The notes below the pieces were generated by a model. That model did not search any database. It had not been told where the DNA came from and worked only from the letters and a program-made list of their open reading frames with translations. Positions 4,434 through 28,499 of a stretch of 64,000 nucleotides of DNA are shown here, one piece after another. A program made the position numbers and the translations under genes. Position 1 is the first letter of the stretch. The number at the start of each line of letters is the position of its first letter. This DNA comes from an uncultured Acidobacteriota bacterium (lineage in GTDB: Bacteria > Acidobacteriota > UBA6911): contig CAWEJX010000009.1 in NCBI GenBank assembly GCA_963809485.1, positions 1 through 64,000 on the forward strand, written 5' to 3'.

Positions 4434-7412
4434 TTAAACGGCGGAAGAAGCCGTAATATCTTCCATCGCCATCAGAATCAGATCCGGCCTGCATCCTTCG
4501 CTGGCAATGCTGCGGGCATTGAGCAACAGCACCTTATGCCCGATGGCGGGAGAATCGTATTCCACGCGGAAGTCCTCGAAGGGCGTGTTCTTCCGAAGGA
4601 TGTCCTCCAGTAGTTGCCGCAAGGCAGGAATCTCCCACTGTCTTTGACCAATCTCATTAAAGAGCCGGCCCTCTGTCTCGGCCGGATTCAGTTGAAACGT
4701 AGAATAGAAGGAGCGGCTTGCCGAAATGATCCGCAGCTCGCCATCCAGTACCACCAGCGGTTCGCGGATCGTGGCAATGATGCTCTGGGCCAAGTCGCGG
4801 GCCTCTTGCAGGCGGATTTCCGTCTGCTTCAGCGCGGTAATGTCGGCAAATGTCATCACCACGCCGTCGATCACGTTGTCCGCAGTCCGGTAGGGCAAGA
4901 CACGCATGTTGTACCAGCGGCCGTCTCTGGCTTGGACTTGTCCTTCCTTGGGCACAAGCGTGTCCAGCACTTGCCTGGCGTCTTCGACCAGCCGGTCGTA
5001 TTTCAGATTTGTGGTGAAATGGCCGATCGGCCGTCCCACATCTCCGGCTGCCAGGTTGACGACTCTCGATGCCTGCGCCGTGAACCGCTTGACACAAAGG
5101 TCGTTGTCCAGGAAGATCGTGGCGATTTCGGTGCCGTTCAGCAGGTTCTTCATGTCGTTGTTCGACTGCGACAATTCCTCGATCTTCAACTGCAACTCGG
5201 CGTTTACCGTCTGCATTTCTTCATTGAGGGACTGCAATTCCTCCTTGGAACTGGTCAATTCCTCGTTGGTGCTCTGCAATTCTTCGTTGTTGGACTGCAA
5301 TTCCTCATTGGCCGATCGGAGCTCTTCCTGGGCTGTCTGCATTTCCTCGATGGTGGTTTGAAGGCGATCGCGCATGCGATTGAGTTCTTCTTCCATTTCG
5401 GTTGCCGGGATATCCGCACGGGAGGGCACCAACCTGTTTTCCTGAACCGCCTCTGAATGATCGTTTCCAGTCTCCTCGAATACGATCAGTAACATGCCTC
5501 GCAGTTCAGCCGGCTCGGCAAGCGGCCTGACGGTGAGGTCAATGATTGTCCAGCCGCCATTGGACTTGATCCTCACGCCGGCCCGCGTAACGGTTGTCTT
5601 CTGTTTCGCGGCATTGTGAATAGCGATGCACGAGATCTTCGCGCAGCCCCTCGCGGGCCATCGCAAGAACATTGACGTTAGCTTTCCCGGAGGAGGGTTC
5701 CAGATAGTTGCCGGTTCGGCCGTTGACATAGATGATGTCACCCTCTGCAGTAACAATCACGGAGGGAGGGCCATAGGTGTCCAATAACACCCGCTGGGCA
5801 GCATAGAAAATATCCATGGCCGGTAATTCCCCCTTCTCTGCTGCAGGCGCCGCGATACGCTCGTGATGCATCGCACGGGCCGGCATTTCGATGAAGCTTC
5901 TCTCACTCCCCTCGTGCGCTCGAATATCCTTCCACTTCTGGTCCACCGCCGAGAACAGGTGGCCGAAGCCTCCAACGCTCTCGGCCGTACCCAAGATCAG
6001 CAGCCCGCCGGGATTCAGGGCGTAGTGCATTAACGCCAGAAGTTTCTTCTGCGTCTCGGCAGTTCAGATAGATCAAAAGGTTCCGGCAACAGACGATGTC
6101 CAAACTTGTAAATGGCGGATCGACGAGGATGTTCTGTGGAGCAAAAACCACCAGATCGCGAATATCCTTCTTGATCCGGTAGCTCTCTCCCTCAGGCACA
6201 AAGAAGTGCGCCAGGCGCGCAGGGGAGACGTCTGAAGCGATACCGGAGGAATAAATGCCCTGGCGGGCTTTTTCAATGGCATCATGGTCGATGTCGGTGG
6301 CAAAAATCTGAATCGCCGGACTATCCGATAGACTCAAGCCCTCGATGCACTCCTTGAGCGCGATAGCAAGCGAGTAGGTCTCCTCTCCGGTCGAGCAACC
6401 CGGGATTCCACACTCGCACGGGACTTGCTTCCGGCCGCATCCGGAACAACCGGGGAAATCCTTCTTCACTCAGGAAGTCGAACAAGCCCGGATCGCGGAA
6501 GAAGTTGGTCACTCCGATCAGCAGTTCCTTGTTTAGCAAATCGACTTCCTGAGGATTCTCCTGGAGAAAGCGAACGTATCGCGGAAGGCTGTCAAACTGA
6601 TGAACGCTCATCCGGCGCTCGATCCGCCGGCTGATCGTGCTGTTCTTATAGCAGGAAAAATCGTTGCCGGTTCTTGCCCGTAGAAGAACAAAGATCTTTT
6701 GAAGTGCGGCGGATGATCCCTCATCGGCCAAATTATGAACTTCAGCGGATTGTGGGATGTGGTGAATAAACTGGTTCAATTTGGCGGGAAGTTCTTCCGC
6801 GGAGGCCACGAAATCCACAAGCCCGGTATTAATGGCGCTTCGGGGCATCCCGTCATACTTTGCCGAGGCGGGATCCTGAACCATCGCCATTCCCAGGTTT
6901 TCCTTGATGGCTCTCAGCCCCAGCGTGCCGTCTGTCCCCATACCGGAAAGAATAATGCAGATAGCTTTTTCCTTCTGATCTGCGGCCAATTGCCGGAAGA
7001 AAAAATCGATCGGCATCCGCAAGCCCCGAGGCGCGGAAGGTTCAAGCACCTGCAATCGTCCGTGCAGAATGGCAAGGTCCGCATTGGGAGGAATCACGTA
7101 GATGTGATTGGGCTGAACATCCATACCGTCTGCCGCTTCAATTACCTTCATTGGGGTCTGCCGTCCGAGGAGTTCGGGCATCATGCCTTTGTGCGACGGA
7201 TCCAGATGCGGCACGAGAACGAAGCTTAATCCAGTGTCCGGAGTCATGTGCGAGAAGAATTGTCCAAATGCCTCCAGTCCCCCTGCCGAGCCGCCCATGC
7301 CGACAATCCGAGAACCAGCCGGATCGCGACCTGGTTTCAGCTTCGGGAATGGGGAAGCAGCAAGGCTTTCCGTGGGTCGACTCGAGCCGGATTTCCTTCG
7401 GACTTTTTTCAT
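4434..7412 (-). CDS. cheBR: CheB methylesterase / CheR methyltransferase / coiled-coil / PAS fusion, interrupted by about 3 single-base frameshifts
   Basis: CheB motifs GGSAGG, HLDP, SGMGTDG. CheR motifs [37 protein letters not shown] coil and PAS. Frame changes near 6400, 6060 and 5630. Confidence 0.88.
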
Positions 7413-7661
7413 GCGAAGCCCGCGTATTAAAAAAACATTGCATGGGAGGCTGCATCGAAAAGGCAATTCGGTTCAAAATCAACAATGGTACCCGCAATAA
7501 TGCGAAGCCCTCTTTGCAGTTCTGCTTCTGAATGAACGTTAAGTAGTTTTTTTATTATACTCTTAAGTCGTCGACCCACCTCCTAATAAATCGGGGTAGA
7601 AACAATTATGCATCCGGCAAAACCGGAAGTTTATTCAAAAGCGAATTCGATCATTGAGCAT

Positions 7662-8438: not shown

Positions 8439-10199
8439 ATGACAAAAGGCGCAGGCAATCAGGTGCTTTTGGAAGTTTTAAATCCCCGCGCGAGTCTCCC
8501 GTCTATTCCCGTGAGCGGCTTGACCGCACCGCGGCTTGACTCTCTCGAAGGCAAACGAATTCTCCTTTCGGGCGGCAAGCCGGATTCCGTCGTTTTCTTT
8601 GACGTCCTGGAGAAATTGCTAAAGGGAAGATACCCCACTTTGATTGTAGAACGACGCGCCTTTTTCACCGTCACGGAAGGCAACAAATATGATTTCGACG
8701 CATGGGTGGAGGGGGTAAAAACCTCCGGCGCCGGAAGAGTGGACAATGAGGCAAAGCTTGAAAAAATGGGTTTACCAGGGGTAACGGTCGTTGTCGATGA
8801 CCTTCTCCCTCAGCGGAAACGATTAGCGGAGTGCAACGGCCTTCCGGGTATTCGCATAGTAACAGTCCCGGCCGAAACATATTTTGTCTGCGAATGTAAG
8901 CCGGAAAAATTGAGACCGATCGCTGCCTCAGCAATCGATGACATCATTGAAGCTCTGACCTCCCCTTTGACCGAAGAGGAGATAAATCCTAAGCGTTTTG
9001 TGTACGATTACGGTCCCATGCATTTCGCGGGTGCCTCTTATGACGAGGCTTATGAGAAATTTCAGCAGTACTGTATAGAAAACGATATGGGGGACGGGCT
9101 GCCGCTGACTCCGCCCACAGAAGAAGCGGTAAAAAGGATGATGGCGGGTACAAGCCGCTCGCCCGATGAAGTATTGGGTTTGATGGTTCCCCGCAACGGG
9201 AAGGCAACCATAGAAAAAGTGGCGATTAACGCGGTAATGGCCGGAGCCAGGCCGGAATATCTGCCTGTCATTATTGCCGCGGTCGAAGGAATGGCGGATA
9301 TCCGCTTTAACCTCTACCACATTTCTACCGGAACGCTAAACTCCAGCGCACTGGTTTTTGTAAACGGTCCCATAGCAAAAGAAATAGGAATGAACTCTCG
9401 AGATGCCTATTTAGGACCCGGCAATCGTGCCAACAGTTCCATCGGCCGCGCACTCAGCCTGTGTATGATAAACATCGGGTGGAGTTTTTTCAAAACAGAG
9501 GGCGGCGGAATTGGGCAGCCGACCCGATATACCCACCTGATATTTGCGGAAAACGAGGCGGAGAGTCCCTGGGAGTCCTTTGCCGTAGAGCATGGGTATG
9601 CTCCGGAAGACAGCACCGTTACCCTGGACGAATGCATCTGGTATGACAGGCTCGGCCCGTCGGGATGCATGAATCCCATGCCGATGGAAGCCGATATGGC
9701 ACGGCTTGCCTCAATGGTCAAAGGTTTTACGGGAGGCATGACCCCCGCCAGAAACGCTCCGGCAGTCCCGATATGGGGATCCCTGGATGCGGAATCGGCG
9801 ATCAACGGCAATTATTGCACCCTGGTTTTATATCCCGCGCTGGCACGTCAGCTCGCCGCTGCCGGCTACAGCAAGCAGAAGCTGGCTCAATGGCTGTGTG
9901 ACCAACACCGTTTCCCATGGGACGATTATTCCGACAGTCAGCAGCAAAGCATTCTAAAAGCGGCAAAGGCGGGCGGTATCCCAGGATTAAGGGTAGAGCA
10001 CTGCAAATCCGGCGGCACGATTCCCAACTTCAACCCGAGACATCTGGCCATCTTGGTTGCAGGGCCTATGGCCGGTCAGGCGATGGGTTTCTACGGCGGC
10101 GCAGCTACTCAGCCTAACTTCGATAATATAGGTTCGACTGAAATTGATTATATGATCAAAATAATTCACGGTGCTACCCTGACAGAAGCCGGACGATAA
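8439..10199 (+). CDS. UGSC-family-like N-terminal domain fused to the conserved 'DGLPxxPPT...KVAINAVMAGA' domain; paralog 1, no U/CxxC
   Basis: AGGAGG RBS. Motifs VLNP..APRLDSLEGKRI, LEKMGLPGV, GDGLPLTPPTEEAV, ATIEKVAINAVMAGARPEYLPVI, NRANSSIGRA. Confidence 0.8.
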   Translation: MTKGAGNQVLLEVLNPRASLPSIPVSGLTAPRLDSLEGKRILLSGGKPDSVVFFDVLEKLLKGRYPTLIVERRAFFTVTEGNKYDFDAWVEGVKTSGAGRVDNEAKLEKMGLPGVTVVVDDLLPQRKRLAECNGLPGIRIVTVPAETYFVCECKPEKLRPIAASAIDDIIEALTSPLTEEEINPKRFVYDYGPMHFAGASYDEAYEKFQQYCIENDMGDGLPLTPPTEEAVKRMMAGTSRSPDEVLGLMVPRNGKATIEKVAINAVMAGARPEYLPVIIAAVEGMADIRFNLYHISTGTLNSSALVFVNGPIAKEIGMNSRDAYLGPGNRANSSIGRALSLCMINIGWSFFKTEGGGIGQPTRYTHLIFAENEAESPWESFAVEHGYAPEDSTVTLDECIWYDRLGPSGCMNPMPMEADMARLASMVKGFTGGMTPARNAPAVPIWGSLDAESAINGNYCTLVLYPALARQLAAAGYSKQKLAQWLCDQHRFPWDDYSDSQQQSILKAAKAGGIPGLRVEHCKSGGTIPNFNPRHLAILVAGPMAGQAMGFYGGAATQPNFDNIGSTEIDYMIKIIHGATLTEAGR

Positions 10200-10314: not shown

Positions 10315-12042
10315 ATGAAAGCTGCCGAATTTGTATTGGAGATATTGGAGCCTCACGGCCAGCTTGCGTTTCCCGAAAGACAGGGATTATGTGCGTCGCG
10401 CCTCGGCGATTTGAATGGGAAAAAAATTGCCATTCTGGCGATGGGCCCGGATTCACTGGCGTTTTTCGACACAATAAAGTCCATGCTGAGGAATAAGTAT
10501 CCTGCAGTTGAGTTTGTTCATTTCAGTTACGGAATCCCGAACGCGCCTGACATTTCTGCCCAAATAGCAGAGGAGTGCGACGGGTGGATTGACGGAGTTA
10601 AGGCGGCGGAGACCGGCTCCAGACATGATACCGGCGCCAGACTGGAAAAACGGGGCTGCCCCGGTGTGGCAATCGTGTCCGACGCAATAATAAATGCGAA
10701 AAGGCTGCTGGTAGATAATAACGGTATGCCGACCTGCCGCGTTCTTACATTGCCGGCAGTGGATTACCTTGTCGCCAAAACCGACCCCGAATTAATGAAG
10801 CCGGTTGCAGAAGCGGCTTTTGAGGGTATCCATAATGCGCTTGTCAAGCCGCTGACAAAAGAAGAACGGGAAGTCGAAAATTTCAGCTATGACTATTCGC
10901 CCAAAAAATTCACCGGCTCCGATTATTCCGAGGCAAACGAAATTATTCAGCAGTACTGTGCCGAAAACTTCATGACCGATGGGTTGCCCGTGGTACCGCC
11001 GACGAAAGAGGCGGTGGAAAGAATGCTGGCGGGAACGGCCTATCCGCCTGATAAGGAAATAGGGCTTATGTTTCCGAAGCAGGGCAGGGCGACTGTGGAA
11101 AAAATCGCCATAAACGCAGTTATGGCAGGTGCGAAACCCGAGTATCTTCCTGTCATTATTGCCATGATAGAGACTATTACGGCCAAAAACTTCAACCAGT
11201 ATCATATTGTGAACGAGATTCTGCCCATAACCTTTATCAGCGGGCCGATTGTTGAGGAAATCGGGCTTAATAACGAAGGAGGCTATCTGGCTCCGGGCCA
11301 CAGAGCAAACGCCACTATCGGACGGGCAATGCTTATGTGCATGATTAATATAGGATGGCGCCGCATGGATGTTTATTCGTCGCCTGGAGGCCCCGGTCAG
11401 CCTGCCGCATATGCAAATTATGTGATACCGGAAAATCAGAAAGCCAGCCCATGGGAACCCTACGCTGTTTCAAACGGGTTCAAACCCGAAGAAAGCACCG
11501 TAACCATATGCGAAGGCATTTTTATTGCACGCGGGCCGTCCGAGACCCTGAGCATGGCCGGTTATAAAGAGAAACTGAGGCAGTTGAGCGGAATGTTCTC
11601 CCATTCGGCAGGAGTATTCGGATTTTTTGGAATGCCGCAAAACGGCAGCGACATGCGGCATATGGTTGTGATTCATCCGACATTTGCACGGCAATTGGCA
11701 AATGCCGGTTTTACCAGAGAGTCTTTTATTAAATGGCTGCATGACCAAAATTCGATCAGCTGGGAAAAGATGAGCGAGGATGAGCGCAAAGATTTTGGAG
11801 AAATGGTGGCTGAGGGTGGAGTTAAAGGAATAAGGACTGAGGACTGCAAACCGGGGCTTTACAGGGAGCCTTTTGCCGACCCGAAGGATGTGGCTGTTAT
11901 TGTAGCCGGTACAGGTGCGGGCGGAGTGATTGTTTTTCAGACTCCTTGCGGCTCAACCGCCCATGTTGAGGATGTTGAAGTGACAAGGCCATACATGCAC
12001 AAAGTAATACACGGCGCTACGCTGACCCAATATGGACGATAA
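10315..12042 (+). CDS. UGSC-family-like fusion protein; paralog 2, no U/CxxC
   Basis: AAGGAGG RBS. Same motifs (RLGDLNGKKI, LEKRGCPGV, TDGLPVVPPT, KIAINAVMAGAKPEYLPVI). Shares the C-terminal IHGATLTxxGR with paralog 1. Confidence 0.8.
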   Translation: MKAAEFVLEILEPHGQLAFPERQGLCASRLGDLNGKKIAILAMGPDSLAFFDTIKSMLRNKYPAVEFVHFSYGIPNAPDISAQIAEECDGWIDGVKAAETGSRHDTGARLEKRGCPGVAIVSDAIINAKRLLVDNNGMPTCRVLTLPAVDYLVAKTDPELMKPVAEAAFEGIHNALVKPLTKEEREVENFSYDYSPKKFTGSDYSEANEIIQQYCAENFMTDGLPVVPPTKEAVERMLAGTAYPPDKEIGLMFPKQGRATVEKIAINAVMAGAKPEYLPVIIAMIETITAKNFNQYHIVNEILPITFISGPIVEEIGLNNEGGYLAPGHRANATIGRAMLMCMINIGWRRMDVYSSPGGPGQPAAYANYVIPENQKASPWEPYAVSNGFKPEESTVTICEGIFIARGPSETLSMAGYKEKLRQLSGMFSHSAGVFGFFGMPQNGSDMRHMVVIHPTFARQLANAGFTRESFIKWLHDQNSISWEKMSEDERKDFGEMVAEGGVKGIRTEDCKPGLYREPFADPKDVAVIVAGTGAGGVIVFQTPCGSTAHVEDVEVTRPYMHKVIHGATLTQYGR

Positions 12043-12287: not shown

Positions 12288-12947
12288 TTAGATTTTGTTT
12301 TCAGTCAACGGAAACAAGCGCTCGGACCTTGGCTTCCCACATCCGGCGCATTCGGCGTCATACCAGCTCATAGGTAAACCGCACTGGGGACAACGCCATC
12401 GCTCTTCTTCGTATTTAGCCCATTCCTGAACGCCCATCCCACGAATTTTTTCGAGGTTTGGCAGGTATTCTTTACGGTGCAGATAGCCGCCCATATTCAT
12501 TAAATTCGTAATACGATAGCAGGGCAACTCTTCACAGTCAGAACAACGGGAATCATCCTGTTTGTTCGCTGCGCATTTCCTTATAGCGCAGTTTTGGCAA
12601 TGGGCAGCAAGCATGCCGCCGCTGATACAGCCGTCGCAAACAAGGCCATCCATCCAACTCGATTCCGGAATCCCCTTCTGTGCCTTCGTCGGTCCGGATG
12701 AAAATCCCTTTTGCAGTTTCATTTTTATTTGCTTATCTTCGCTGTGTTTGGCGATGTAAGCCGGGCAGGCTCCGCAATATGTTCCGCATGCGGCTGCCAG
12801 ATATACCTTGCCTTTGCCGTCTTGCTCTGAATTCTCTACTGAGGCTGCCAAACAATCCAATGAAAAACATGCATAACAAAACGCTGCACCGGCTGCCCCT
12901 TTAGCAAACTTTCTTCGAGTTATTTTCTCGTTATTATCGAAATCCAT
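12288..12947 (-). CDS. Tat-exported Cys-rich DUF3795-like (putative Fe-S/metal-binding) protein
   Basis: TRRKF twin-arginine signal. Cys motifs CGTYCGACPAY, CDGC, CAIRKC, CSDCEELPC, CPQC...CAGC. Confidence 0.8.
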   Translation of the reverse strand: MDFDNNEKITRRKFAKGAAGAAFCYACFSLDCLAASVENSEQDGKGKVYLAAACGTYCGACPAYIAKHSEDKQIKMKLQKGFSSGPTKAQKGIPESSWMDGLVCDGCISGGMLAAHCQNCAIRKCAANKQDDSRCSDCEELPCYRITNLMNMGGYLHRKEYLPNLEKIRGMGVQEWAKYEEERWRCPQCGLPMSWYDAECAGCGKPRSERLFPLTENKI

Positions 12948-13093
12948 ATTGGTTCTCGCTCCTTCAAGAATATTTATCTTAACGCTCTTTTATGATGGCG
13001 CCCCCATAATTTTTTTCCAGATCAGGTTCTTCATCTGAGGCTGAAAAACAGGCTCCTGCCACAAGCTCTTCAAAACGATGTCGAAACCGAGGA

Positions 13094-13490
13094 GTCAGGC
13101 ACCTCCGGCAAAGCCGGAGGCTTGAAAGATTGGAACCGCTCAAAGCGGTTGGAGGAGTTACGCTGGTCTTGAACGCTGACTTACGCGGGCAAAAGCCGAT
13201 GAGGCGCTTCCGATCCCCGCAGGGACCAGCGCTCCGCGCTGCACAGTTTTCTGCGGCGGCACTGTGGCAAACGCCCGGTTTCTCATAACCTCCATCTCCT
13301 TGCCGCACGGCGCTTGCCACAGTGCCGCCGCAGAAAACTCCATCGGAAGCGCCTCATCGGCTTTTGCTCGCCGACCCTCGCCGAACAAATCGGCGTTTGT
13401 CAGCGCTTTTATCAGCGTTTCTCAGCGTTTCAAAATACGAAGCTGTCAAACTCTTTGAGTCCCCCGGCAGAGCCGGGATTTACCAATAGA
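13094..13490 (-). mobile_element. Non-autonomous IS200/IS605-type element (MITE/PATE-like), copy A, 397 bp
   Basis: Left-end hairpin TAAA-TCCCGGC-TCT-GCCGGGGG. Right-end hairpin CAAG-CCTCCGGC-TTT-GCCGGAGG ending in TGAC. Preceded by TAAT. Near-identical to 24065-24461 and 38243-38640. No transposase and no TSD. Confidence 0.8.
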
Positions 13491-14153
13491 ATTATGGCTA
13501 TGGGAAGCCTTTCGTCGAAATAAGGAATTGGATGCTGGTCCTTGGCTATCCGGCTGTTTCACCGAACCCCAAGGAATTGCGAAGCCTTACGGACATGATT
13601 CACTATGACAACTGCGGTTCCAACGATTTCCGAACCGATGAGCAGGTCCTCGCCGATGCCCAAAAAACATGGGAGTGGTGCATGGCCGAACACTAATCCG
13701 CCGCGTCCGCGAACGCACAGGAGGGCACCCTGCGCAACTGCGATGCAAAACTGCGGAGGGTTCGTGCCATATGCAATAGCGAGGATTGCGACGCTCAAAG
13801 GCCGGTGAGCATATCCCCGTCCTGCAGAGCCGAGGTGTGGCCGCACATCGAGACCGGCCGCTGTTAAGACCTCGCACCAGGCGGGCACTTAGATGACCAA
13901 TCTTTCATAGAAGCCCCGGCCATAATCAACCGCGGCCCAGATTGAGTTGTGGATTCGAAGAAGCTTGTTTGCTTTCTGGAATTTCCACATTTGGTTTTAC
14001 TACAGCCAAAATGGGCGAGCATGATATCTTTTAGGTTCGCATGCACGTTATCGGATCCGAGCATGGCGGGGTTGGATGAAGCCAAAAATCGTGGCAGGAT
14101 TTCTCCGGAACTCCTTTCAACAAATTGGCAATCCTTAAAAGCGGAGGTGTGAT

Positions 14154-15813
14154 TTGAAAAGAAAGATATGGCCCGTCTCATTGGTTGTGCTTCTCATCGC
14201 TGTAATTTCGACAGCATATTCTGCCGAAAAATTCAGGGTATTGAATCCGACCCCCCCGAATCGAATGGTCGATCGCGTACCCCTTGCACCGCGGCTCGAT
14301 TCGCTGGAAGGAAAAACAATATTCCTGGTGGATATCGGCTGGGGAGGTGAGAATGCGGCTCCCAGCATTTATGAGGAAATGAAGGCATGGTTTGCCCAGA
14401 ATATGCCGAGTGTCAAAATTGAGGTCAGAAAGATCAAAGGCTTCTACATGCAGGATCAGCCGGAACTCCTGAAAGAAATCTCCGAAAGGGGCAACGCGGC
14501 TATGTTTGGGATAGCCGGTTGAGACAGCTGCACATCGGCCGTGAGCCGAAACTGCAAACAGCTGGAACAGCAATACAGGATTCCCACCGTTGGGGGCGCG
14601 GCATCCAATATCATCAAATATGCCCAGGGGCACGATTTCCAGTATACCAACGGATCGCCCATTCGATACATTTCCTTTCCCTTCCCGGTAGCCGGACAGC
14701 CTCAATCAGTGCACCATAGATATATTTTTGAGAGCAAGGACGTTGTAAGCGGAAAGCCGATGATGCAGGCGTTCGTCGACGCCCTGACCGTTCCCCTGAC
14801 CGACCAGGAGAAATACAAAGGCCCGGCGCCTGAACCAGTCGCGGCGGAATCCCGCTTCCTCGGGCCGGACACTGAGGAGAACCTGCAGCGCCTTTTCAAG
14901 GACCAGGACTGGACAGATTACCTTCCCATTATCCTTCCGACCGAAGAACGCGTGGCAGACATGCTGAAAGGCACCTCGCATAAACCGGACGAAGTCATCA
15001 AGACCCTGGACTGGCCCGGCGGCAAGCGGGAAGTTACGGTAGAAAGAGTGGCGACCTGCGCTGTTATGGCCGGCGCCAAACCGGAACATCTTCCTGTGAT
15101 TCTGGCCCTGGCCAACCACATACCCTTTGGAAACTCCACATCCTCCATGGCCAACATGATCCTGGTCAACGGACCCATACGCGACGAAATAGGGATGAAT
15201 TACGGTCACAACGTAATGGGACCGCATAATCTGGCCAATTCGGTTATCGGCCGCAGTTACACGATTATGTCGAAAACCATCGGCGGTCTGCACAGCAAAA
15301 AAACCACCTGGAGCAGCCTGGGAAGCACCCTGCAATACAACAATGTCTGCATTGCGGAAAACGAGGAGGCATTGCCTGAGGGATGGAAACCTTTTCATGT
15401 CCAGGCGGGATTCAAACCTAATGACAGTGTTTTAACTGTGGCAACCGGATGGTCCTATATTTCCAGCGTAACGGAAGCTAAGACGGGAATACCCGGTAAA
15501 TATGTGGATGGGCGAGTATATGAAGGCACTTACAATGGGATCGGCCACAGTCATTATGGATCCGAGCGTCGCCAGACTTCTAAAGGACACCTATGGTTTT
15601 CAGACCAAAGACCAACTGAGCAAATGGTTTTCGGAAAATGTTGAAAAAACTCAGTACCCTTCAGGACAAAAGGTAAAACCCTTCCAGGAAACCTCAGTAA
15701 ATATAATTGTTACAGGCGGCGGGGGCCAGACAACATGGTTTGTGACGGATTTCATGCTGAGTCGGAATATGGTTCTGTCGGGAGGGAGTACACGCATTGA
15801 CGACTGGCGCTAG
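14154..15813 (+). CDS. Signal-peptide-bearing UGSC-family selenoprotein (U-D-S-C); Sec at TGA 14520-14522; one frameshift near 15480
   Basis: GGAGG RBS and TTG start, Sec-type signal MKRKIWPVSLVVLLIAVISTAYSA. Reads GIAG-TGA-DSCTSAV in frame into the 14541 ORF. SECIS-like hairpin follows. Removing one A near 15480 joins the 15502-15813 ORF. Confidence 0.82.
14523..14564 (+). promoter_or_regulatory. Putative bacterial SECIS element
   Basis: Stem TCGGC/GCCGA (14535-14549) with loop CGTGA, 17 nt after the TGA. A lower stem is possible via TGCA/TGCA or CAGCTG/CAGCTG. Confidence 0.65.
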
Positions 15814-16022
15814 AAAAGGAATCCTGCGATTAACAAGGCGCTTAGCCATTAAGTACCACCCCGACAAAGCCTGAGCTTTAATTTGTAAGCTGCTCAAAGC
15901 GGCTGGCACAGTATTACCGGGGTCGCAATCTGAATCGATACGGATACAGCTATTCGTTTCCCGATTTCGACTGCGACCCCGATTCCGACGCCGATAGCCA
16001 CAGTGACTAAAGCCTTGATAAT

Positions 16023-16225
16023 TCTATTGGTAAACCCACGGCTCTGCCGGGGGACTCATAGAGTTTGACGGCTCCGTATTTTGAAACGCTGAGATACGCT
16101 GACAAAAGCGCTGACAAACACCGATTTGTTCGGCGAGGGTCGGCGAGCAAGACCAGCGTAACTCCTCCAACCGCTTTGGGCGGTTCCAATCTTTCAAGCC
16201 TCCGGCTTTGCCGGAGGTGCCTGAC
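16023..16225 (+). mobile_element. Same IS200/IS605-type element, copy B, internally deleted (203 bp)
   Basis: Same left and right ends, after TAAT (16019-16022) and ending in TGAC. Most of the cruciform cargo is missing, with a GAGCAA|GACCAGC junction. Confidence 0.8.
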
Positions 16226-16419
16226 TCTTGGATAGGATGCCGTTGAAACACATCGCTCAACAAAACGGTATTATCCTGGCATGGCAGCGAAAGCGCAGTG
16301 TCCGGTTTCTTTTTTAATGGGGATCTTCAAAAATCCGGGAGAGAATTTTCCGGGGCATCCGGCACCATGAGAGGAATCGACTGCCCCGCGATATCCCGCC
16401 GGGAAAATATAGCAGGAAG

Positions 16420-27249: not shown

Positions 27250-27705
27250 ATGATAGGGAAAAATGGCGCGGGTCTTCTATTACTATTGCTGCTTTTGATA
27301 GTGAGTGCGGCAGAAGCATATCCCGAAAAATCCGCCTCTTACGTCGGTTGGAATAAATGTTCCGCCTGTCATTCCGCCGTTGCAAATACATGGCAGAGCA
27401 CCCGCCATGCCAAAGCCATTGAGAGTCTCAAAAAAACGGGGCAGGAAACGCTGCCGGCATGCGTGAAGTGTCATGTGACCGGATACGAGCAGGACGGAGG
27501 TTTCATTGACTACGAATTAACTCCGGAAATGGCCGGCGTACAATGCGAAGTATGCCACGGTCCCGGGGGGGAGCATGTGACAAATCCGGCGGGGAAGGAT
27601 ATGATTAAGGCATCGGGGGCGGCTCTGTGCCGCCAGTGCCACACAGAAGGCCAGGACCCCGGATTCAATTATGAGGTTAAAGTAAAGGATGTGCATGGCA
27701 AGTAA
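27250..27705 (+). CDS. Exported tetraheme cytochrome c (c554/c3-like)
   Basis: Signal peptide and four CxxCH motifs (CSACH, CVKCH, CEVCH, CRQCH); also YVG..KC and VQCEVCHGPG. Confidence 0.9.
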   Translation: MIGKNGAGLLLLLLLLIVSAAEAYPEKSASYVGWNKCSACHSAVANTWQSTRHAKAIESLKKTGQETLPACVKCHVTGYEQDGGFIDYELTPEMAGVQCEVCHGPGGEHVTNPAGKDMIKASGAALCRQCHTEGQDPGFNYEVKVKDVHGK

Positions 27706-27755: not shown

Positions 27756-28499
27756 ATGAAAAGCGGAAAAGCCACAGTGGCGGCGAGCAGTCTCCTTGGG
27801 GTAGTCGTGCTCCTCATCGGGCTGTTCCTTGCTTACGGCAGTGAGTCAGGAGAATTGCTCAAAGCCACGCCTGATCGATTCGATGCAGGGACTGTTGCAG
27901 AAGGGAAAACGGTTGAAGTGACAACCAGCGTTCAAAATGTCGGGAGTGTGTCTGTAGAAATCACCAACGTGAGGACCAGTTGAGCATGCACCGAAGCTAT
28001 GCTTGGTAAGCATACATTGAGTCCGAATGAAAAGACCGATCTCAAAGTCGTTTATGCAACGGCCGGACGTCCGGGTCCTTTTGAAAAAGAAGTCACTCTC
28101 CTAACGAATATTCCAGGGCACGAGAAGATCCAGATTTTTATGATGAAGGGGGAAGTGCAGGAGGCGCCCGGGGCGAAAATCGCGGTTGCGCCGCGAAGGA
28201 TTGTGCTTGCAGGAGCTGAACGCAGCAGCGGGAAAAAACAGTCCTTTTCGCTTGCCAACGAGGGAACCCTGCCGTTGGTGATCACCGGGATCCGGTCCAA
28301 AGACGGTTCGACGGTTTACTATGATGGTTCCAAAGAAGGAAACATCACGGTCGAGCCCGCTCAGAAGAAAACCATCGAGCTTCAGTTGCCCGGCAAAAGC
28401 GGGGAGAAAGACGAGAGGGAACTTATACTCATCCTCTCCAACGCCAAAAACGCAGGTGAGTCGGGCCTGTTCATCATGGTCCAGTATGGAGCGCCGTAG
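27756..28499 (+). CDS. DUF1573 (Ig-like) domain selenoprotein; Sec at TGA 27981-27983 (S-U-A-C-T)
   Basis: The ORFs 27756-27983 and 27999-28499 are in the same frame. FDAGTV...NVG...ITNVRTS-TGA-ACT matches the DUF1573 sCGCt motif. SECIS-like hairpin follows. Confidence 0.82.
27998..28014 (+). promoter_or_regulatory. Putative SECIS hairpin
   Basis: Perfect stem TATGCTT/AAGCATA with a GGT loop 21 nt after the TGA. Confidence 0.7.

Follow-up and report, generated by a model that had tools for sequence, protein, structure and literature searches.

The 64,000-nt window examined here, positions 1 to 64,000 of contig CAWEJX010000009.1 from an uncultured Acidobacteriota bacterium of the UBA6911 lineage, holds a gene on the forward strand that runs from TTG 14154 to TAG 15813 and contains an in-frame TGA at 14520-14522. 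Comparison with its relatives indicates that this TGA is decoded as selenocysteine (Sec), the first residue of a U-x-x-C pair, and that the gene codes for a predicted exported protein of the UGSC family. It is one of 39 Sec-encoding copies among 51 paralogs in the genome. As a whole, an exported Sec-containing UGSC protein with a presumed reductase role is the explanation that we consider best, and we hold it with modestly better than even confidence. The copy in the window also carries a frameshift, which is treated separately from the reading of the family.

The target gene and its in-frame TGA

The table-11 open reading frame (ORF) 14154-14522 is stopped by the TGA, and the same frame goes on as G-I-A-G-[TGA]-D-S-C-T-S-A-V-S-R-N-C-K-Q-L-E-Q-Q-Y-R-I-P-T-V, so the continuation past the TGA described in the initial annotation is present. 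A Shine-Dalgarno-like GGAGGTG, read from the sequence at 14143-14149, lies 4 nt 5' of the TTG start. The first 23 residues (14154-14222), KRKIWPVSLVVLLIAVISTAYS, have the classical n-h-c shape of a signal peptide, which would likely be cut after A-Y-S, ahead of AEKF. Orthologs have the same shape, and the best 10-mer of the target N-terminus reached 3.4 in a hydrophobicity heuristic of our own making, in agreement with the signal peptide predicted earlier.

With the TGA read as Sec, residues 29-184 (14238-14705) matched the Pfam UGSC domain (PF24696) at 45.7 bits against a gathering cut-off of 25, which supports the original assignment to UGSC-type U-x-x-C proteins. Sec is residue 123 of the predicted product, in the motif G-U-D-S-C. 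The score against the NCBIfam model UGSC_fam (NF041046), a short equivalog of ~147 aa, was 32.3 bits and thus far under its cut-off of 125. A linker is followed by a C-terminal domain (C-domain) of ~330 aa (14865-15810) that was delimited by alignments, contains the motifs WTD.LPI.LPTE, NAVMAGA.PE, NGPIR, AN..IGR, and AENEE, with WTD, LPTE, N..IGR, and AENEE as invariant residues, and is interrupted by the frameshift. The true stop, TAG 15811-15813, comes after ...STRIDDWR, and D-x-W-R is the usual C-terminus of the family. The predicted product is therefore an exported protein of ~553 aa with a signal peptide, the UGSC domain, the linker, and a C-domain that belongs to no known family.

Paralogs were collected by six-frame translation of the genome and jackhmmer, which gave 51 near-full-length sequences that were aligned with MAFFT. 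A TGA was found at the exact alignment column of the target in 39 of them, in the motif G-[H/D/G]-U-x-x-C. In the remaining 12, the column is occupied by S, A, G, T, L, or M. Relatives outside the genus were taken as the best 80 of >578 related stretches found in a scan with one genome per species across many phyla; these 80 loci come from Acidobacteriota, Thermodesulfobacteriota, Chloroflexota, Proteobacteria, Actinomycetes, and others. At the Sec column, 64 have TGA and 12 have Cys, and the column is not covered in the remaining 4. The homolog P0021 has Cys in place of Sec (G-I-S-G-C-D-S-C), is full-length, and carries a signal peptide. The occurrence of TGA at the same column in 39/51 paralogs and 64/80 relatives is far beyond chance. 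The proposed hidden selenoprotein is thus well supported, and the Cys/Sec alternation looked for among homologs was found. The genome also contains the machinery for Sec, consisting of tRNA-Sec (70.6 bits, ARAGORN anticodon tca) and selA, selB, and selD, with SelA, SelB, and SelD searches scoring 564.7, 391.3, and 345.5 bits, respectively. The selD gene of this genome (C8:80982-81905) has an in-frame TGA of its own.

If the TGA were an ordinary stop, the region would hold two genes, one for a 122-aa exported peptide and one for a 423-aa protein starting at GTG 14541. Gene callers do annotate the family in this way, and thousands of 421-425-aa "hypothetical proteins" begin just past the TGA. 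Database searches returned >6900 matches, and nearly all of the best 120 were C-terminal pieces called from just past this codon. The TGA column is, however, kept across phyla and across paralogs with a median identity of only 32%, and the sole replacement for TGA in the 80 outside loci is Cys. In addition, a single Pfam domain runs across the TGA and the hairpin described below is specific to the TGA forms. The ordinary-stop explanation is already contradicted by these data, and we consider it extremely improbable.

The initial annotation had also placed a hairpin with a G/U-containing loop 17 nt downstream of the TGA. Such a hairpin is present, with a stem formed by 14535-14539 and 14545-14549 and a CGUGA loop, but the distance was only roughly right since the stem begins 12 nt past the TGA. 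The larger stem-loop, which resembles a selenocysteine insertion sequence (SECIS), spans 14526-14564 with an outer GCUGCA/UGC..AGC helix, and its register is common to the family. Hairpins were tested by ranking the stability of the 30-nt window after the TGA among the windows of its own gene. The target hairpin ranked in the top 1.3%. Within the genome, a top-5% hairpin was found in 22/39 Sec paralogs compared to 2/12 non-Sec paralogs (Mann-Whitney p = 3e-4), and outside the genus in 36/64 Sec loci compared to 1/12 Cys loci (p = 4e-4), where the p-values overstate independence because paralogs and loci are related sequences. In the outside Sec loci, the apical loop contains G in 64/64 and GU in 62/64, and it begins at nt 21 in 40/64. 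The stems vary by subfamily (CCGGC/GCCGG, UCGGC/GCCGA, GUGGUGGG/CCCACCAC, and others) and the register remains constant. In Cys forms that share the peptide motif, the stems are degraded, which indicates that the protein sequence by itself does not account for the hairpin. An Rfam search returned no SECIS match for the target. These data suggest that the stem-loop past the TGA is likely a SECIS element.

Paralogs in the genome and the frameshift in the target copy

The 39 Sec paralogs fall into 37 clusters at 90% identity and 12 clusters at 50% identity. This clustering and the median pairwise identity of 32% indicate old paralogs rather than assembly duplicates. The end of the family model is reached by 32 of the 39, three have a C-terminus specific to their subfamily, and four, including the target, are truncated. 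In the whole genome, Pfam UGSC gave 58 matches, 57 of them above the cut-off. The best of these, at C12:92787-93303 on the reverse strand, scored 129.5 bits and has one TGA and a 208-aa open frame, and it resembles a short UGSC gene of the classical kind; the last 40 positions of the UGSC model match in a neighboring piece. Each of the 18 other genomes of the genus had 10-46 matches, and almost all among the matches listed contain one TGA, so the expansion is common to all 18 other sampled species. In other genera of the class, even a weak match was seen in just 2 of 12 genomes. The closest named database proteins carry the labels of metagenome-assembled genomes (MAGs), namely "Acidobacteria bacterium" (4) and "Deltaproteobacteria bacterium," "Thermodesulfobacteriota bacterium," and "Desulfobacteraceae bacterium" (1 each).

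Two further paralogs lie upstream of the target on the same strand, as identified by Pfam and alignment. The first (8439-10199) codes for 586 aa with SGAG at the site of the Sec/Cys pair, and the second (10315-12042) codes for 575 aa with AETG. The two genes are in tandem and of the cytoplasmic type; each lacks a signal peptide as well as Sec and Cys at the column but keeps both domains. The picture given initially was incomplete in that it missed the paralog expansion, these two non-Sec paralogs, the C-terminal domain, and the possible pseudogene status of the target.

Export appears to be the rule among the Sec copies. By the same hydrophobicity heuristic, 34 of the 39 have a signal-peptide-like N-terminus, and 4 of these 34 are also lipobox-like. 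Two others have twin-arginine motifs (SRRAFFK and PRRAFLR), and about two look cytoplasmic. Among the outside loci, 32 of 74 have an export-like N-terminus, including an Acidobacteriota group with a Tat-like NRRKLLSLLG.SPALLAG. One long relative carries a domain of the copper-amine-oxidase N-terminal type.

The indel near 15480 mentioned in the initial annotation was located as an extra C at 15484, in AAGA[C]GGGAA. It shifts the reading frame, so that the upstream frame reaches TGA 15642-15644 and the true frame (+1) leads to TAG 15811-15813. The last ~110 residues are cut off as a result. Five orthologs found in other species of this genus lack the extra base, as does P0005, an intact 423-aa database protein that is 99% identical (...TEAKREYPVNMWMGEY...). 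An intact ortholog is seen, for example, at L027:1456-3129. The site was also compared with metagenome contigs from four runs, which represent related strains only, the best run sharing 0.34 of words. One base is missing at 15482 or 15484 in all of the covering depth in runs X1 and X2, in 16 of 21.3 in X6, and in most of the depth in X3.

We consider it about equally probable that the target copy was recently inactivated and that the extra base is an assembly error. If C15484 is a true mutation, the family would be real and 14154-15813 would be a recent pseudogene, and this explanation falls only slightly short of an even chance. It would account for the lack of the base in the five orthologs, P0005, and most or all of the covering contigs of the four runs, and the base lies outside any homopolymer or slippery site. 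A decayed copy that is 88% identical, with extra indels and a TAA, is found at C4:390887-392155, and 4 of the 39 Sec copies are truncated. However, apart from C15484 the target is undamaged at its start, signal peptide, Sec codon, and hairpin and in its C-terminal frame, and the runs compared do not contain the source reads. Moreover, a CheB-CheR fusion in the window (5539-7466, reverse strand) is likewise split across frames, as assembly indel errors would produce. The ORF 6321-7466 covers its CheB and CheR_N domains, and the overlapping ORF 5903-6469 covers model positions 39-153 of the CheR SAM-binding domain. As the second frameshifted gene of the window, it bears on assembly quality, although the split itself fits a true mutation or an assembly error alike.

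Relation to GrdB and candidate function

The Sec site had been likened in the initial annotation to that of the glycine and proline reductase subunits GrdB and PrdB. Since all 10 GrdB database matches were cut at Sec, read-through sequences were drawn from metagenome loci, giving 61 GrdB genes read through the TGA. The profile of the N-terminal domain (N-domain) aligned with this set at an hhalign probability of 95.4% (E = 1.8e-8) over 98 columns, with Sec on Sec and with U-x-x-C, E..GIP, and P-x-P coinciding. The family profile aligned with a single GrdB sequence at 63.5% (E = 6.8e-5), also with Sec on Sec. Four controls, consisting of the C-domain against GrdB, either side reversed, and the N-domain against the C-domain, gave 0.2-2.5%. 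The Sec segments of GrdB, GrdF, and PrdB and that of the target share a hydrophobic stretch, U-x-x-C, E..GIP, and P-x-P-x-G, and in both GrdB and the target the selenolate would be backed by a nearby Cys. These data suggest that the Sec-bearing segment, which corresponds to the second half of the UGSC domain, is remotely homologous to that of GrdB. The proposed parallel therefore held as true remote homology, but only over ~100 residues.

In other respects the two proteins differ. The target has another partner domain, of no known family, in place of the GRDB N-terminal domain; its Sec is near the N-terminus and that of GrdB is near the C-terminus; and it is predicted to be exported, unlike the cytoplasmic GrdB. 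Pfam GRDB (PF07355) did not match the target at E <= 0.1, and the only hit in the genome was one unrelated 32-bit locus that is not a paralog. Since this model ends just before the Sec of GrdB, the blank is uninformative on the Sec site. Unlike in GrdB systems, GrdA and GrdE/PrdA were not found in the genome, which is 95.7% complete, the PF09338 search being one without a positive control. The same GrdA search did succeed in another genome (G023), where GrdA lies beside GrdB.

One explanation of the Sec-on-Sec alignment would be that the target is a true Stickland reductase subunit of the GrdB/PrdB type acting in the periplasm, and P0021 also has a weak match to the sarcosine reductase GrdF (E = 0.014). 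The homology is nevertheless short, the GRDB domain is in no paralog, the partner proteins GrdA and GrdE/PrdA were not found in a nearly complete genome, and GrdB itself was found in just one of the 151 genomes sampled from the phylum. We therefore consider this explanation very unlikely. The local homology, together with the missing GRDB domain, GrdA, and GrdE/PrdA, indicates that the protein is not a glycine or proline reductase, and the suggestion of a GrdB/PrdB-type enzyme had to be given up.

The C-domain is large and widespread, and its profile matched 6804 clusters at 50% identity, of which 1954 reached E <= 1e-30. No known family could be assigned to it. When 91 C-domains were compared with Pfam, no family had matches in more than two of them, the ~330 C-terminal residues of the target had no Pfam or NCBIfam match, and searches of PDB sequences with whole-protein and C-domain profiles gave noise or nothing. 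For the homolog P0016, Protein Atlas returned only "hypothetical/UGSC" clusters and no structure. Architectures were read from the best 150 matches, of which ten were compared with Pfam, six with NCBIfam, and three as sequences. The domain occurs alone (~350 aa) or in tandem (~710 aa), and it also precedes the UGSC domain in swapped order, with the gene call cut exactly at Sec. In one relative, it is fused to a ferredoxin:thioredoxin-reductase (FTR) catalytic-chain/FtrB-like module.

Gene neighborhoods were compared for the outside loci and for the copies in this genome. A gene for a thioredoxin reductase (TrxR)-like flavoprotein lies within the 3-kb flank of 19 of the 80 outside loci, often adjacent and on the same strand. 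These proteins have a CxxC motif and score 267-308 bits on TIGR01292, which is under the cut-off of 343. Cys forms next to such a gene are found in Bradyrhizobium-type genomes (L096), and a Sec form is found in the isolate Pseudonocardia acaciae DSM 45401 (L135). An export-like N-terminus was found in 2 of 18 loci with the TrxR-like neighbor compared to 30 of 56 loci without it. The copies in this genome lie in islands with molybdenum hydroxylases, Tat-exported FAD_binding_2 flavoproteins, carboxylesterases, and aldehyde:ferredoxin oxidoreductases. Molybdenum-hydroxylase large and FAD-binding subunits are found upstream on the same strand at at least three copies, with a Sec paralog directly downstream at C12:123461-128551, C8:382287-387301, and C20:502097-507611.

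The neighborhood search also found an exported protein of ~188 aa, without a Pfam or NCBIfam match, 14-250 bp downstream of several Sec paralogs (5-7 copies). It is seen at C4:161056-161619 and six similar loci, and it recurs at 4 of the 80 outside loci (e.g., L103:2499-3071). Between the upstream paralogs and the target lies a gene for a Cys-rich DUF3795 protein (12288-12947, reverse strand) with a twin-arginine-like N-terminus (RRKFAKGAAGAA). DUF3795 was rejected as a partner of the family, as there are just two DUF3795 genes in the genome.

The TrxR-like neighbor, the GrdB homology, and the module fusions suggest a redox-active Sec/Cys pair that works on behalf of the C-domain and is returned to its reduced state by a dedicated reductase. 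From this, we infer a function of the "reductase or lyase" kind proposed initially. In the mechanism that we put forward, the C-domain would bind the substrate, the selenolate would attack it, and the nearby Cys would resolve the resulting adduct to give a selenenyl-sulfide. This Se-S bond would then be re-reduced from outside, with the adjacent TrxR-like flavoprotein as the possible donor in cytoplasmic relatives. The many diverged exported copies would represent an expansion of the substrate range. A selenol/thiol-dependent reductase with a substrate-binding C-domain, including these steps and the expansion in substrate range, is a tentative proposal whose probability we place appreciably below even.

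Several observations weigh against the overall reading of an exported selenoprotein reductase. The target copy is frameshifted. Its signal peptide, and those of the other copies, are called by a simple home-made hydrophobicity rule. The target hairpin taken alone was not significant, with a minimum free energy of -19.5 kcal/mol, z = -0.85, and an equal value in 39 of 200 shuffles, so the case for a SECIS element rests on the family, for which the p-values are inflated as noted above. The resolving Cys is missing in three Sec paralogs, which have W-U-G-A-A. The 12 paralogs without Sec and Cys, including the two in the window, retain both domains, indicating that the scaffold also has a function independent of the redox pair. 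No Cys is conserved in the C-domain, which is also without a match to a known family. Finally, no substrate, electron donor for the exported forms, or constant partner gene was found in this genome.

Some of these features would also fit a non-catalytic exported binding protein, in which the Sec-Cys pair is a ligand for a solute, metal, or metalloid (e.g., Hg, As, or Se). Many diverged exported or lipoprotein paralogs are typical of binding-protein families, the 12 of 51 copies that do without Sec or Cys would be less surprising, and TctC-type genes lie near 7 and ABC-transporter genes near 6 of the 80 outside loci. On the other hand, no transporter gene recurs by the copies in this genome, and cytoplasmic forms of the family are common. 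Redox turnover is favored by the GrdB homology, the TrxR-like neighbor, and the fusion with a module of the thioredoxin-reductase type. A binding protein is thus quite unlikely in our estimation, and an exported Sec-containing reductase remains the preferred reading.

Other features of the window and comparison with known selenoproteins

A second hidden selenoprotein, also predicted to be exported, is encoded in the window at 27756-28499 on the forward strand. This gene of the DUF1573/OS_HP2 family has a signal peptide and a TGA at 27981-27983 in the motif T-S-U-A-C, where the ORF track splits it. It is the sole DUF1573 match in the genome, with one TGA, and it scored 59 bits against the NCBIfam model OS_HP2 (seleno)protein, under the cut-off of 100. 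Just upstream, at 27250-27705 (forward strand), is a gene for a small multihaem cytochrome c (Cytochrome_C554) with paired CXXCH motifs. The target itself is flanked on both sides by a dispersed intergenic repeat at ~12950-13560 and 15990-16300, which gave 830 and 466 BLASTN pieces, respectively, on nearly all contigs. The repeat units are ~200-420 bp long with 70-93% identity, and their spurious translations recur by many paralogs.

UGSC-containing proteins were named in 2007-2008 and, according to the accessible parts of those papers, are abundant in ocean and freshwater metagenomes (PMC1976440, PMC2398784), one of which also mentions a "UGSC/Unknown_1 fusion" (PMC2398784). The family is called uncharacterized in the available portion of a 2026 review (PMC13188914), and a survey lists, in its accessible text, 33 UGSC sequences in 26 organisms, i.e., one or few per genome (PMC5029168). 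In the same portions of these four sources, no function is given. Export, a link to GrdB, the C-domain, and the expansion are likewise not described in the accessible UGSC literature. UGSC is unmentioned in PMC12013277 and in the preprint 10.1101/2022.07.06.499078.

The target is like the UGSC family (PF24696, NF041046) in its N-terminal domain, which is above the Pfam cut-off, and in the position of Sec in U-x-x-C. Known UGSC proteins stand alone at ~147 aa, whereas the target, at ~553 aa, additionally has a 330-aa domain and is preceded by a signal peptide. The one or few genes per genome contrast with the ~40 diverged Sec paralogs per genome seen here. The TrxR-like neighbor at the 19 outside loci and the one relative with an FTR/FtrB-like fusion are reminiscent of TrxR-coupled thiol reductases such as AhpF-AhpC and TrxB with its clients. 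Unlike in those systems, the exported copies of this genome are without a TrxR-like neighbor and the client domain is of no known family. Other exported selenoproteins (DsbA/DsbG-like, DUF1573/OS_HP2, and FdnG) also combine a signal peptide with Sec, but they are single genes or small sets, compared to the ~35-39 predicted exported Sec proteins from one family here. The size of the expansion in particular, but also the long UGSC architecture, the predicted export, and the relation to GrdB, appear to be new, and this long form of the UGSC family is widespread and has no name of its own.

The largest bacterial selenoproteomes given in the available text of the review have 57 members in the Olavius delta-1 symbiont and 63 in a Methylomirabilota MAG (PMC13188914), and 46 was the largest among 20 bacterial genomes tested in another study (PMC12013277). 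We counted ~44 genes with an in-frame TGA in this genome, a tally from incidental searches and not a systematic selenoproteome count. It includes the 39 full-length TGA copies, a few TGA fragments, one short UGSC-type locus, selD, the DUF1573/OS_HP2 gene, and one molybdopterin oxidoreductase with an in-frame TGA (C20:1207473-1208783). The products of selD and of the oxidoreductase gene are probably further selenoproteins. Because the tally was unsystematic, the full count could exceed 57 and 63.

A broader possibility is that the genome codes for ~35-40 diverged exported Sec enzymes that use a GrdB-like selenolate to cleave bonds reductively in many organic substrates of the periplasm or the extracellular space. 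We regard this as doubtful, with a low but not negligible probability. If true, the family would parallel, in a selenium-based form, the paralog swarms known for reductive dehalogenases and would draw on a periplasmic electron donor, and most of the selenoproteome in an uncultured wetland/soil genus would come from one family.

Environmental surveys have counted UGSC proteins among the most abundant selenoproteins since 2008, yet no function has been assigned to them. The GrdB-like Sec site, the TrxR-like partner of the cytoplasmic relatives, and the large partner domain now provide three testable handles on the long UGSC form. Since gene callers split the long-form genes, the selenoproteomes of soil and wetland MAGs are probably badly underestimated. 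The 39 Sec paralogs of one mostly exported family are unusual by any published count, and ~40 copies would place the genome among the most selenium-dependent described. The expansion also raises the question of how a selenol/thiol center stays reduced outside the cytoplasm.

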